DNA of 64,000 nt, taken from assembly GCF_030013595.1 (NCBI RefSeq), contig NZ_CP122768.1; one strand, written 5' to 3'. The notes under the pieces were generated by a model, which was not told where the DNA came from, did no database searches, and saw only the letters and a list, made by a program, of their open reading frames with translations. Shown in pieces: positions 21,376-35,979 of this stretch (positions are counted from its first letter, which is position 1; each line of letters starts with the position of its first letter). Source of the stretch: Escherichia coli (lineage in GTDB: Bacteria; Pseudomonadota; Gammaproteobacteria; Enterobacterales; Enterobacteriaceae). Both the position numbers and the translations under genes were made by a program.

Positions 21376-21416
21376 TGTCGATGATGTCGAAATGACACGT
21401 CGACACGGCGACGAAA
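21376..21416. promoter_or_regulatory. FhlA upstream activating sequence shared by the divergent hyp and hyc promoters
   Basis: tgtcgatgatgtcgaaatgacacgtcgacacggcgacgaaa: TGTCG/CGACA-rich repeats between the two sigma-54 promoters. Confidence 0.6.
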
Positions 21417-21462
21417 TTCATCTTTAGCTTAAAAATCGTTTTAATAACAATGAATTAAAAGT

Positions 21463-21478
21463 TGGCACAGAAAATGCT
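21463..21478 (+). promoter_or_regulatory. Sigma-54 (-24/-12) promoter for the hyc operon
   Basis: tTGGCACagaaaaTGCt with 10 nt between GG and GC, ~37 bp upstream of the hycA ATG. Confidence 0.65.
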
Positions 21479-21514: not shown

Positions 21515-21976
21515 ATGACTATTTGGGAAATAAGCGAGAAAGCCGATTACATCGCACAGCGGCATCGTCGCCTACAGGACCAGTGGCACATCTACTGCAA
21601 TTCGCTGGTTCAGGGGATCACGTTATCGAAAGCGCGCCTGCATCACGCCATGAGCTGCGCGCCGGACAAAGAACTCTGTTTCGTCCTTTTTGAACATTTT
21701 CGCATTTACGTCACCCTGGCGGATGGCTTTAACAGCCACACCATCGAGTATTACGTCGAAACAAAAGATGGTGAAGACAAACAGCGGATTGCGCAGGCGC
21801 AACTGAGCATTGACGGCATGATTGATGGCAAGGTCAACATCCGCGATCGCGAACAGGTTCTGGAACACTATCTCGAAAAAATCGCTGGCGTTTACGACAG
21901 CTTATACACCGCCATTGAAAACAATGTGCCGGTGAATTTAAGCCAACTGGTAAAGGGACAAAGCCCGGCAGCATGA
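21515..21976 (+). CDS. hycA: Formate hydrogenlyase regulatory protein HycA
   Basis: 153-aa ORF MTIWEISEKADYIAQRHRRLQDQ... Confidence 0.93.
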   Translation: MTIWEISEKADYIAQRHRRLQDQWHIYCNSLVQGITLSKARLHHAMSCAPDKELCFVLFEHFRIYVTLADGFNSHTIEYYVETKDGEDKQRIAQAQLSIDGMIDGKVNIRDREQVLEHYLEKIAGVYDSLYTAIENNVPVNLSQLVKGQSPAA

Positions 21977-22100
21977 GCTGAGGCTTTGCCCGTTTTGCAG
22001 GCGTTACGCCTGTTTGGGGATGGGCGTGTCGATGAGTGTCGAAAATGACATTTCATCGGCATGTTTTCGTCAAAAATGACAATCACCTGAGGAATGCCTG

Positions 22101-29401: not shown

Positions 29402-30175
29402 TTGAACATCAGAACAGGGATGTGCGCTTTTTTATTGAGCTTAGTGCTGCCTGCACAGGCCACCAGCTTTACCGAATATCTGCCGATGAGTGACAGCGAA
29501 TACGCGCAAAAGCGGGCGCTGAAACCTCTCCTGACCATGCCTTATGATGCCGAGCAAAACTGGCATTTTAGAAAAGTCGGCGTTGCTGGCGTGACGCTTG
29601 AAAAGATGCCAAATGATGATAGTGAATGGCAATTGAACGGTAAAGATCGCGCCGGTAAATCCTGGTCTGTGCCTGTGGGGGTGCTGCAAAATATGGCGGG
29701 TAATGCGCAACTTTACCGTGCCGATCTTGATCGTAACGGCATTCAGGATCTAGTTATCTGGCGGGGTATTTCAGGAAATGGTCTGGCACCTAACGCGTTT
29801 TTGATTCTGATGACCTTTAATCAGCAAGGTCGCCCGTGTGTTTTTCAGTCCGATGGTTTTTATACCGCAAGTGAAACTGGCATTGATGATTTGCTGGATT
29901 TACAAAGGAATGGCCACACGCAATTGCTGGATATGCAGTTTGATTCCGGTTACTGGATAACCAGTCTGTATCAGGTAAAAGACGCCAAATGGCAGCGTGT
30001 TCACGGCTGGTTTGGCAAGTTAAGCTATCCCGCGCTCACGCGTTTTACTTATACCCCCAACCGTAAACTCGTCCTCAAACCCATCGCCGGGCGCGACCCG
30101 CAATCGGAAGATCTGGCGCTGACGCAGCGTTGCTTGATAAAGGGGGATGTGCTTTATGGGGTGAATCAGAACTGA
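29402..30175 (+). CDS. Uncharacterised predicted secreted protein (~257 aa) with N-terminal signal peptide and two Asp-rich D-x-D/Q-x-N-G loops
   Basis: n-region with Arg, hydrophobic core CAFLLSLVL, AQA|TS cleavage site; motifs ADLDRNGIQDLVIW and LDLQRNGHTQLLD; start ambiguous between TTG 29402 and ATG 29420; only 24 bp after the hycI stop with no terminator. Confidence 0.6.
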   Translation: MNIRTGMCAFLLSLVLPAQATSFTEYLPMSDSEYAQKRALKPLLTMPYDAEQNWHFRKVGVAGVTLEKMPNDDSEWQLNGKDRAGKSWSVPVGVLQNMAGNAQLYRADLDRNGIQDLVIWRGISGNGLAPNAFLILMTFNQQGRPCVFQSDGFYTASETGIDDLLDLQRNGHTQLLDMQFDSGYWITSLYQVKDAKWQRVHGWFGKLSYPALTRFTYTPNRKLVLKPIAGRDPQSEDLALTQRCLIKGDVLYGVNQN

Positions 30176-30237
30176 CTTTTTGCAGAGTGGCTATGTGGAT
30201 TTTGGGGGTAATTATATAGCGTACAAGTGTTTACATA

Positions 30238-30266
30238 TTGTGAACTTTGATTTGATGAGCTATAGT
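30238..30266 (+). promoter_or_regulatory. Candidate sigma-70 promoter for the HigBA-like pair (-35 ttgtga, 17-bp spacer, -10 tatagt)
   Basis: Hexamers in an AT-rich spacer ~70 bp upstream of the toxin ATG. Confidence 0.4.
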
Positions 30267-30336
30267 TTCCGAACACATAAGGATAGAACTCGCAGATGTG
30301 GCTGTTTACTTACTATAAGGAAGTTAAAACTTAAAA

Positions 30337-30648
30337 ATGCACATCATTTCTAAAGCGCCATTTGAAGAGTGTGCGCGCAAATATCCTAACGACGCTCTGG
30401 CTCTACACTCATTGTATCGGGTTATTAAGGAAACGGATTTTTCTACACCAGAAGAAATGCGAACGGCGTTTCCCAACCTCGACAATTTTAGATATCGCAA
30501 CAAATGGTACGTTCTGGATGTCGGCGGGAACAATCTTAGGGTTATTGCCTACATAAACTTTGTTAATAAGCGGTTCTTTGTGAAGCACATAACGAATCAC
30601 GCAGAGTATGACAAACTGACACGTTACTACAGAGAGAACAAAGAATGA
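30337..30648 (+). CDS. HigB-family type II toxin (RelE/ParE-fold mRNA interferase), 103 aa
   Basis: MHIISKAPFEECARKYP...FPNLDNFRYRNKWYVLDVGGNNLRVIAYI... resembles HigB/YgjN-type toxins; toxin gene precedes the antitoxin with a 4-bp ATGA overlap. Confidence 0.8.
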   Translation: MHIISKAPFEECARKYPNDALALHSLYRVIKETDFSTPEEMRTAFPNLDNFRYRNKWYVLDVGGNNLRVIAYINFVNKRFFVKHITNHAEYDKLTRYYRENKE

Positions 30649-31064
30649 CTGCTAATGCTGCACGCGCTGTTAAAGCAACAAGAGAACTGGTCAATGCAGT
30701 CCCCTTTCTGGGAGGTAGTGACTCAGAAGATGATTATCGTGAAGCACTGGAACTGGTCGAATATTTGATTGAAGAAGATGACACCAATCCACTTATCGAC
30801 TTTCTGGCGAGCCGCATTGCAGAGTATGAAAGCAACAACGAAAAGTTTGCAGAGTTCGACAAAGCCGTTGCTGCAATGCCGGTTGGCGTGGCGTTACTTC
30901 GTACGCTGATTGATCAACATAATCTGACCTACGCGGATTTGAAGAACGAAATCGGCTCTAAATCCCTGGTCAGTCAGATTTTGTCTGGGCAACGATCCCT
31001 GACGATATCCCACATTAAGGCACTTTCAGCCCGATTTGGTGTTAAGCCGGAATGGTTTCTTTGA
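30645..31064 (+). CDS. HigA-family antitoxin (XRE-type HTH at the C-terminus), 139 aa
   Basis: ...GSKSLVSQILSGQRSLTISHIKALSARFGV... HTH segment; translationally coupled to the upstream toxin. Confidence 0.8.
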   Translation: MTANAARAVKATRELVNAVPFLGGSDSEDDYREALELVEYLIEEDDTNPLIDFLASRIAEYESNNEKFAEFDKAVAAMPVGVALLRTLIDQHNLTYADLKNEIGSKSLVSQILSGQRSLTISHIKALSARFGVKPEWFL

Positions 31065-34292: not shown

Positions 34293-35303
34293 ATGACGAC
34301 GATGCTGGAAGTGGCGAAGCGCGCCGGGGTTTCAAAAGCGACCGTTTCCCGCGTGCTTTCAGGTAATGGCTACGTCAGCCAGGAGACTAAAGATCGCGTG
34401 TTTCAGGCGGTAGAAGAGAGCGGTTACCGTCCAAACTTGCTGGCGCGCAATCTGTCGGCGAAGAGTACTCAGACGCTGGGGCTGGTAGTGACCAACACAC
34501 TTTACCACGGCATTTATTTTAGTGAATTACTGTTTCATGCCGCGCGAATGGCGGAAGAGAAAGGGCGACAGTTGCTATTGGCAGATGGTAAACACAGCGC
34601 CGAAGAAGAGCGCCAGGCGATTCAGTATCTGCTGGATTTGCGCTGCGACGCCATTATGATTTACCCGCGTTTTTTAAGCGTGGATGAGATTGATGACATC
34701 ATTGACGCACACAGTCAGCCGATAATGGTGCTTAATCGCCGCCTGCGCAAAAACAGCAGCCATAGCGTCTGGTGCGATCATAAACAGACCAGCTTTAACG
34801 CCGTGGCAGAGTTGATAAACGCCGGACATCAGGAGATTGCTTTCCTTACCGGCTCGATGGATTCCCCCACCAGCGTTGAACGTCTTGCCGGGTATAAAGA
34901 CGCGCTGGCGCAGCATAGTATTGCGCTCAATGAAAAACTTATCGCTAACGGTAAATGGACGCCCGCCAGCGGGGCCGAAGGGGTAGAAACGTTGCTCGAA
35001 CGTGGGGCTAAATTTAGCGCGTTAGTTGCCAGTAACGACGATATGGCGATAGGTGCGATGAAAGCGTTACACGAGCGCGGCGTAGCGGTGCCAGAGCAGG
35101 TGTCAGTTATCGGATTCGATGATATCGCTATTGCCCCCTATATCGTTCCGGCGCTCTCCAGCGTAAAAATTCCGGTGACTGAGATGATTCAGGAAATTAT
35201 TGGACGGCTGATTTTTATGCTCGATGGCGGGGATTTCTCACCGCCGAAAACCTTCAGCGGAAAATTGATCTGCCGCGACTCACTCATTGCCCTTTCGCGA
35301 TAA
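34293..35303 (+). CDS. ascG: LacI/GalR-family repressor of the asc operon
   Basis: N-terminal HTH MTTMLEVAKRAGVSKATVSRVLSG; start taken at ATG 34293; upstream in-frame ATGs at 34284/34290 cannot be excluded. Confidence 0.88.
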   Translation: MTTMLEVAKRAGVSKATVSRVLSGNGYVSQETKDRVFQAVEESGYRPNLLARNLSAKSTQTLGLVVTNTLYHGIYFSELLFHAARMAEEKGRQLLLADGKHSAEEERQAIQYLLDLRCDAIMIYPRFLSVDEIDDIIDAHSQPIMVLNRRLRKNSSHSVWCDHKQTSFNAVAELINAGHQEIAFLTGSMDSPTSVERLAGYKDALAQHSIALNEKLIANGKWTPASGAEGVETLLERGAKFSALVASNDDMAIGAMKALHERGVAVPEQVSVIGFDDIAIAPYIVPALSSVKIPVTEMIQEIIGRLIFMLDGGDFSPPKTFSGKLICRDSLIALSR

Positions 35304-35307
35304 ACAT

Positions 35308-35346
35308 TGTCATCACATGTCATCGTCACTAGTGTCGATGACATCG
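35308..35346. promoter_or_regulatory. FhlA-UAS-like repeat cluster upstream of hydN
   Basis: tgtcatcacatgtcatcgtcactagtgtcgatgacatcg resembles the TGTCG/CGACA repeats of the hyc-hyp UAS. Confidence 0.4.
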
Positions 35347-35451
35347 TTTTTCCTGCATTGCAGAATTTAATTTCTTTAAATAACAGTAAATTAAAAACTG
35401 GCATGATTTGTGAGTGTATCGGCGCATTAACTGTCATTGCTGGAGAATTTG

Positions 35452-35979
35452 ATGAACCGTTTCATCATTGCTGACGCGAGTAAATGTATTGGTTGCCGTA
35501 CCTGTGAAGTGGCGTGCGTGGTTTCTCATCAGGAGAATCAGGACTGTGCATCGCTGACCCCGGAAACTTTTTTACCGCGAATCCATGTCATTAAAGGTGT
35601 GAACATTTCTACGGCGACAGTTTGCCGTCAGTGTGAAGATGCACCGTGCGCTAACGTCTGCCCGAATGGTGCTATCAGTCGTGATAAAGGGTTTGTTCAT
35701 GTGATGCAGGAACGTTGCATTGGTTGCAAAACCTGCGTTGTGGCTTGCCCGTATGGCGCGATGGAAGTGGTGGTACGTCCGGTGATTCGCAACAGCGGCG
35801 CGGGGCTGAATGTACGGGCTGACAAAGCCGAAGCCAATAAATGCGACCTCTGTAACCATCGTGAAGACGGCCCGGCGTGTATGGCGGCTTGCCCGACCCA
35901 TGCGCTGATTTGTGTCGATCGTAATAAACTTGAACAACTGAGCGCAGAAAAACGTCGCCGTACGGCGCTGATGTTCTAA
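35452..35979 (+). CDS. hydN: Formate dehydrogenase-H associated 4Fe-4S ferredoxin-type electron transfer protein HydN
   Basis: Starts [22 protein letters not shown]; four Cys clusters; paralogous to hycB. Confidence 0.93.

Follow-up and report, generated by a model that had tools for sequence, protein, structure and literature searches.

Descriptions of the hydN-hypF promoter, of its sigma-54 dependence and of its membership in the formate/FhlA regulon go back to 1996, and its off-consensus motif is already present in a genome-wide ChIP-seq table. In Escherichia coli K-12, sigma-54 ChIP-seq peak OS26 is intergenic upstream of hydN and contains the motif CTGGCATGATTTGTGAA (Bonocora et al. 2015, PMC4591121). 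The peak is marked “C,” i.e., experimentally confirmed in EcoCyc, and has an occupancy score (FAT, fold above threshold) of 11, compared to 91 for hycA and 201 for hypA (PMC4591121). A sigma-54 holoenzyme gSELEX peak also lies between ascG and hydN (Shimada et al. 2021, PMC8743547). In Salmonella, the hydN site TGGCACGATTCGTGTATA showed 23-fold ChIP-chip enrichment for sigma-54 (Samuels et al. 2013, PMC3844500), and in the same work hydN-hypF transcripts were up 13-fold in a sigma-54-dependent manner on microarrays, and FhlA was given as the activator with reference to Maier et al. 1996 (PMC3844500). A 2025 review likewise states that formate-FhlA enhances hydN-hypF expression (PMC11841067), and IHF has been reported as activating hyc and hyp (PMC2636881). 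Our literature searches for a mapped hydN start or for IHF at hydN returned nothing beyond the papers cited here.

The published record thus establishes that sigma-54 binds here both in vivo and in vitro, that transcription in Salmonella depends on it, and that hydN-hypF belongs to the formate/FhlA regulon. To this, the present analysis adds the position of the promoter in another E. coli strain, its conservation, the lack of an alternative site and an architecture common to hycA. The region is the known control region of hydN-hypF, consisting of an upstream activator-binding palindrome and an off-consensus sigma-54 promoter, and as such is already described and ordinary. We estimate a probability of about 0.9 that it functions as the enhancer-dependent sigma-54 promoter of the hydN-hypF operon, as part of the E. 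coli formate regulon.

Genomic context of the hydN upstream region

The DNA analyzed (the window) is a 64,000-nucleotide stretch of E. coli chromosome. Strain HCP5S3_I2, whose record supplied the gene coordinates used here, is 100% identical over 1.9 kb around the hydN upstream region, a segment found in 5425/5426 complete E. coli genomes. By this annotation, the hyp and hyc operons lie upstream of hydN and norVW-norR lies downstream. The hycI-ascB interval (∼29420-31064) carries an annotated hypothetical protein and a HigB-family toxin with a helix-turn-helix antitoxin, where K-12 presumably has nothing.

Positions 35308-35414 sit within, and cover most of, the 148-bp intergenic region between ascG and hydN. 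An Rfam scan of 35200-35520 gave no RNA family at E ≤ 1. The features of the region, from 5′ to 3′, are as follows.

34293-35303, ascG, with its stop codon at 35301-35303 (annotation)
35308-35316, plus strand, distal degenerate half-site TGTCATCAC (sequence)
35318-35343, no strand assigned, candidate UAS, a 26-bp imperfect palindrome, TGTCATCGTCAC (35318-35329)-TA-GTGTCGATGACA (35332-35343) (inverted-repeat search; 14-nt arms, 93% complementary)
35344-35378, no strand assigned, AT-rich spacer with a T-run at 35347-35351 (alignment; sequence poorly conserved, with 11-13-bp indels between genera)
35379-35396, plus strand, conserved box AATAACAGTAAATTAAAA adjoining the -24 element, a candidate IHF site with core TAACAGTAAATTA at 35381-35393 (pattern search, orthologues)
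35398-35414, plus strand, sigma-54 promoter CTGGCATGATTTGTGAG (sequence, matrix, orthologues, and OS26 in Table 1 of PMC4591121)
35414, plus strand, strain-specific G directly 3′ of the -12 element (A in K-12 and all 80 other species)
35425, plus strand, predicted transcription start, 27 nt before the hydN ATG (motif centre + 19, the rule of PMC4591121)
35442-35445, plus strand, Shine-Dalgarno GGAG (sequence; the Shine-Dalgarno/start-codon block 35442-35454 is conserved in all orthologues)
35452-35979, plus strand, hydN, with its ATG at 35452-35454 and followed by hypF (annotation)

The sigma-54 promoter and its off-consensus -12 element

A sequence-only reading of this DNA had singled out TGGCAT at 35399-35404 as a -24 candidate lacking a canonical -12 element. 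Its coordinates are correct: TGGCAT is followed by GATTTGTGAG, with GG at 35400-35401 and GA at 35412-35413 in the place expected for GC, giving GG-N10-GA rather than GG-N10-GC. The -24 element of sigma-54 promoters is present as TGGCA (35399-35403), and T35411 and G35412 provide the GG-N10-G spacing with a T before the -12 G. The consensus C of the -12 element is absent, its position being occupied by A35413, and the consensus T two bases 5′ of the -12 G is replaced by G35410.

The site was scored with a position matrix built from the 41 other sense-oriented intergenic ChIP-bound sites in the table of Bonocora et al. 2015 (PMC4591121). In the window strain it scores 7.0 bits and ranks 77th among ∼128,000 window positions (76 score higher), while the K-12 allele scores 10.0 bits, which is the third lowest value of the 42 sense-oriented intergenic ChIP sites. 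The same matrix places the known promoters of the window on top (hypA, 21.7 bits; norV, 18.8 bits; hycA, 16.4 bits). A consensus search of the window with TGGCACNNNNNTTGCW, allowing ≤2 mismatches, returned 37 matches versus 46 expected, and the hydN site, with 4 mismatches, was not among them. Sequence alone would therefore not call a promoter here, and the site is weak by this measure. Matrix or consensus scans on their own miss a hydN promoter of 7-10 bits, and real sigma-54 promoters can be without the -12 C.

The sequence-only reading had left two explanations for this weakness, a non-canonical promoter or a mislocated one, and had called for a sigma-54 matrix scan; of the two explanations, only the first stands. 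If the promoter were mislocated, TGGCAT would be a chance match and a canonical GG-N10-GC would lie elsewhere, as the low score and rank and the four mismatches to TGGCACNNNNNTTGCW might suggest. In the scan, however, the hydN candidate was the best site in 35250-35500, where the next-best reached only 3.4 bits, and the consensus search and matrix scan together located no GG-N10-GC elsewhere in the ascG-hydN intergenic region. As the hydN site far outscores the rest of this interval while the matrix recovers the known promoters, there is no hidden canonical promoter. Further, the motif of the K-12 ChIP-seq peak is the same site, differing by one base, and orthologous sites occupy the same position in all species compared (81/81), 29 of which have the canonical TGCA. 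Mislocation is effectively refuted.

The rule used for the start prediction gives 35425, which reproduces the hydN distance of 27 stated in PMC4591121. Compared to K-12 hydNp (EcoCyc; Bonocora et al. 2015), the locus is the same, with six base differences in a 191-nt promoter alignment. The UAS, the box adjoining the -24 element and the -24 element itself are identical, and the -12 region reads GTGA in both strains; the single difference within the 17-nt motif is A in K-12 versus G at window position 35414.

Position 16 of the motif, the -12 C, is C in 38 and T in 3 of the 41 other ChIP-bound intergenic sites. The ChIP-bound E. coli sites at pspA, pspG, ygeW and glnH are likewise bound by sigma-54 without a -12 GC (TTGTA, TTGTT, TTTTCA), although hydN departs at two positions, with G or A for T at position 13 and A for C at position 16. 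As sigma-54 binding is what defines the family, and as some bound sites have no C, the missing -12 C marks a weak member of the sigma-54 family rather than excluding the site from it. The weak -12 element also fits the lower K-12 FAT score of hydN (11, compared to 91 for hycA and 201 for hypA).

A sigma-70 promoter in the intergenic region could be the main or an additional driver of hydN, in which case the weak sigma-54 site would matter little. A scan of 35150-35600 gave one match, ATGACA-17-CAGAAT at 35338-35366, which agrees at 9/12 positions. This single match is at chance level (shuffle mean, 0.9) and overlaps the conserved palindrome, hydN-hypF transcripts in Salmonella are sigma-54 dependent (PMC3844500), and reviews describe formate/FhlA control (PMC11841067). 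We consider main or additional sigma-70 control very improbable.

Conservation of the promoter and the window-strain allele

Species-representative genomes were scanned with the HydN protein, yielding 80 orthologous loci across Enterobacteriaceae and, with the window, 81 sequences. In every sequence (81/81), the top-scoring matrix site is 34-39 nt upstream of the hydN start codon, and TGG at motif positions 2-4 and TG at positions 14-15 are likewise invariant (81/81). The canonical C at position 16 is found in only 29 of the 81, with A in 42 and T in 10, and the canonical T at position 13 is found in none (A in 53, G in 28). The distribution follows genera: the canonical form ATGCA occurs in Klebsiella, Raoultella, Kluyvera, Trabulsiella, Superficieibacter and Pseudocitrobacter, and TGAA or TGTA occurs in Escherichia, Salmonella, Citrobacter, Enterobacter, Lelliottia and Kosakonia. 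The Salmonella enterica promoter (STM2843), for example, is orthologous, with the same position and palindrome, and its -12 element is also non-canonical (GTGTA), C being replaced by T rather than by the A of the window.

The E. coli hydN site is, in other words, the orthologue of a textbook sigma-54 promoter with another base in place of the -12 C, a substitution retained in several genera. The deviation is real and is tolerated by selection, and the G of the “GC” is retained at canonical GG-N10 spacing. The TGCA/TGAA/TGTA series at one orthologous promoter constitutes a set of natural variants for probing the contribution of the -12 C.

It is possible, though on balance doubtful, that the off-consensus -12 element is a selected tuning device rather than tolerated decay. 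If so, A or T at this position would lower sigma-54 occupancy or could loosen the closed-complex lock, and either would, for an equal FhlA signal, leave hydN-hypF less strongly expressed than hyc and hyp. The rare G35414 would then further weaken the promoter of the window strain.

Among 5426 complete E. coli genomes, 41 have G35414 and 5361 have A at this position, and the A-to-G change costs ∼3 bits in the matrix. This rare G is one small new detail of the window strain, and the evidence of sigma-54 binding cited above concerns other alleles.

The upstream palindrome

The TGTC/GACA repeats upstream of the promoter, which had been likened to an FhlA UAS on sequence, are real, and their words and position are common to the hyp-hyc and hycA-hycB regions. 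Copies of TGTC start at 35308, 35318 and 35333, and one of GACA at 35340. The palindrome that they form spans -107 to -82 from the predicted start at 35425, with its centre at approximately -95, and thus lies within the roughly 80-120 bp upstream of a sigma-54 start expected for an FhlA UAS. Its core, TGTCATCGWCA-N4-TGWCGATGACA, is found in 80/81 species, and only the four central bases vary freely. In the alignment, most other genera have a TCGWCA-type core at the distal half-site, reading (C/T)GTCGTCA or TCTCGACA in Klebsiella, Enterobacter, Kluyvera and others.

Enterobacter sp. Ag1 is the sole species of the 81 without the standard palindrome. Its sequence reads ATGACACCGTCAAAAGTGTCGAATATC, and its sigma-54 site, CTGGCACGCTTTATGAA, is at the usual place.

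The words of the palindrome recur at the hyc-linked regions. The 9-mer TGTCGATGA occurs 6 times in the window versus 0.62 expected (6 copies were reached in 0/100 shuffles), and three of the six copies are at 21376 (hyp-hyc), 22027 (hycA-hycB) and 35333 (ascG-hydN). TCGWCA cores cluster in the same three intergenic regions, and the heptamer TCGTCAC is common to the hydN region and the K-12 fdhF upstream region.

The FhlA 16-mer consensus CATTTCGTACGAAATG (Leonhartsberger et al. 2000, as quoted in PMC4987338) was discarded as a membership test for FhlA sites, being a poor match even in the hyp-hyc region. Its best matches have 8 mismatches of 16 at hydN, 7 at hyp-hyc and 5 at hycA-hycB, and the rigid 16-mer does not distinguish known sites from background. 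A half-site matrix, also rigid and derived from hydN palindromes outside Escherichia, was similarly rejected as a detector of FhlA sites because it is too narrow, ranking the hyp-hyc element only 28th in the window.

The palindrome is presumed to be the FhlA binding site; this assignment draws on secondary citations and on resemblance. A different enhancer-binding protein, e.g., the FhlA paralogue HyfR, could occupy it instead, given that the palindrome fits the quoted 16-mer poorly (the 8 mismatches) and that its half-sites are spaced differently from those in the TGTCG-A3/4-TGACA units at hyc. The literature, however, consistently assigns hydN-hypF to FhlA (PMC3844500, PMC11841067, PMC4987338), TGTCGATGA is common to both hyc-linked regions, and the promoter layout and position match those of hycA. 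We therefore regard binding by another activator in place of FhlA as highly unlikely.

In Escherichia, the palindrome might also, or instead, be the intrinsic terminator of ascG. A hairpin at 35317-35344 begins 14 nt past the ascG stop and is followed by CGTTTTT; its RNA fold has an energy of -13.6 kcal/mol (z = -2.4), with a U-run extending to 35351, and there is no other terminator-like structure between ascG and hydN. A scan of 35150-35600, however, calls no terminator, the stem is AT-rich with a U-U mismatch, and the T-run is unconserved outside Escherichia and Salmonella. The palindrome also persists with a different upstream gene: in the Salmonella subspecies loci examined, ORFs of hycG/H/I size replace ascG upstream of hydN, and Salmonella arizonae, where these ORFs are 255, 136 and 156 aa, keeps the palindrome. 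Conservation of the palindrome is consequently not tied to ascG and, as the T-run is not conserved, cannot be explained by termination, which would have at most a secondary role. Such a role is unlikely, and a site for FhlA is the preferred reading of the palindrome.

The spacer and the candidate IHF site

Measured from the centre of the palindrome to the GG of the -24 element, the distance is 58-61 nt in one class of 30 species and 68-71 nt in another of 50, a gap of ∼10 bp that stems from the 11-13-bp indels in the otherwise unconserved AT-rich stretch. Two classes separated by one helical turn are what would be predicted for a bound activator that has to face the polymerase from the same helix face across a DNA loop.

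The box at 35379-35396 adjoins the -24 element and is common to hydN and hycA. The 25-nt pattern AATAACA(R)T(N)AATTAAAA(NN)TGGCA has just two occurrences in the window, one at the hycA promoter (21443) and one at that of hydN (35379), against 0 expected. Among the hydN orthologues, the perfect IHF core WATCARNNNNTTR is present in 18/81 at a fixed offset of 18 nt before TGG, and a relaxed form is present in 62/81. The window copy, TAACAGTAAATTA, has one mismatch to WATCARNNNNTTR, and the box is unusually near the -24 element. A search of the window for the exact IHF core gave 4 matches versus 3.6 expected, none of them at hydN. Judged by its sequence, the box is probably an IHF site, IHF binding being a reasonable deduction rather than a result.

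Proposed mechanism of activation

We propose that sigma-54 RNA polymerase would be held as a closed complex on 35398-35414 and that formate-activated FhlA would bind the palindrome at 35318-35343, with help from the half-site at 35308-35316. Looping of the AT-rich spacer, which IHF would probably bend at 35379-35396, would bring the activator onto the polymerase, and ATP hydrolysis would then open the promoter. Transcription would start near 35425, producing a 27-nt leader that carries the GGAG at 35442-35445. Of this scheme, the exact FhlA contacts, the binding of IHF and the exact start point are those that we infer.

Comparison with the hycA promoter and the hyc region

Within the window, the hydN promoter resembles the hycA sigma-54 promoter with its upstream FhlA region (21376-21478). 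Both have the same layout, with TGTCGATGA-containing repeats at approximately -80 to -115 (approximately -113 to -91 from the start at hycA), and the two promoters align over their whole length with almost equal spacing. The AT-rich box adjoining the hycA -24 element, AATAACARTNAATTAAAANNTGGCA, is near-identical to that of hydN, and the untranslated leaders are 26 nt for hycA and 27 nt for hydN. Two differences stand out. The hycA promoter has a canonical -12 element (ATGCT) and scores 16.4 bits compared to 7.0 for hydN, with FAT scores of 91 and 11, respectively; and its repeats are TGTCG-AAA-TGACA units, whereas that of hydN is a compact palindrome.

Two further observations were made in the hyc region. 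A strong sigma-54 motif, GTGGCACATCTACTGCA (21583-21599, plus strand; 16.3 bits, the fourth best in the window), lies in sense orientation within hycA, 69 nt into the gene and ∼120 bp past the hycA promoter. The identical 17-mer is absent from the text and tables of PMC4591121, and the site may be unresolvable from two strong neighbouring ChIP peaks.

The hycA-hycB intergenic region contains, at 22027-22080, a third FhlA-type repeat cluster, GTGTCGATGAGTGTCGAAAATGACA...TTTTCGTCAAAAATGACA, which closely parallels the hyp-hyc cluster at 21376-21425 and which we take to be the second of the FhlA sites reported for the hyc-hyp region in the 1990s.
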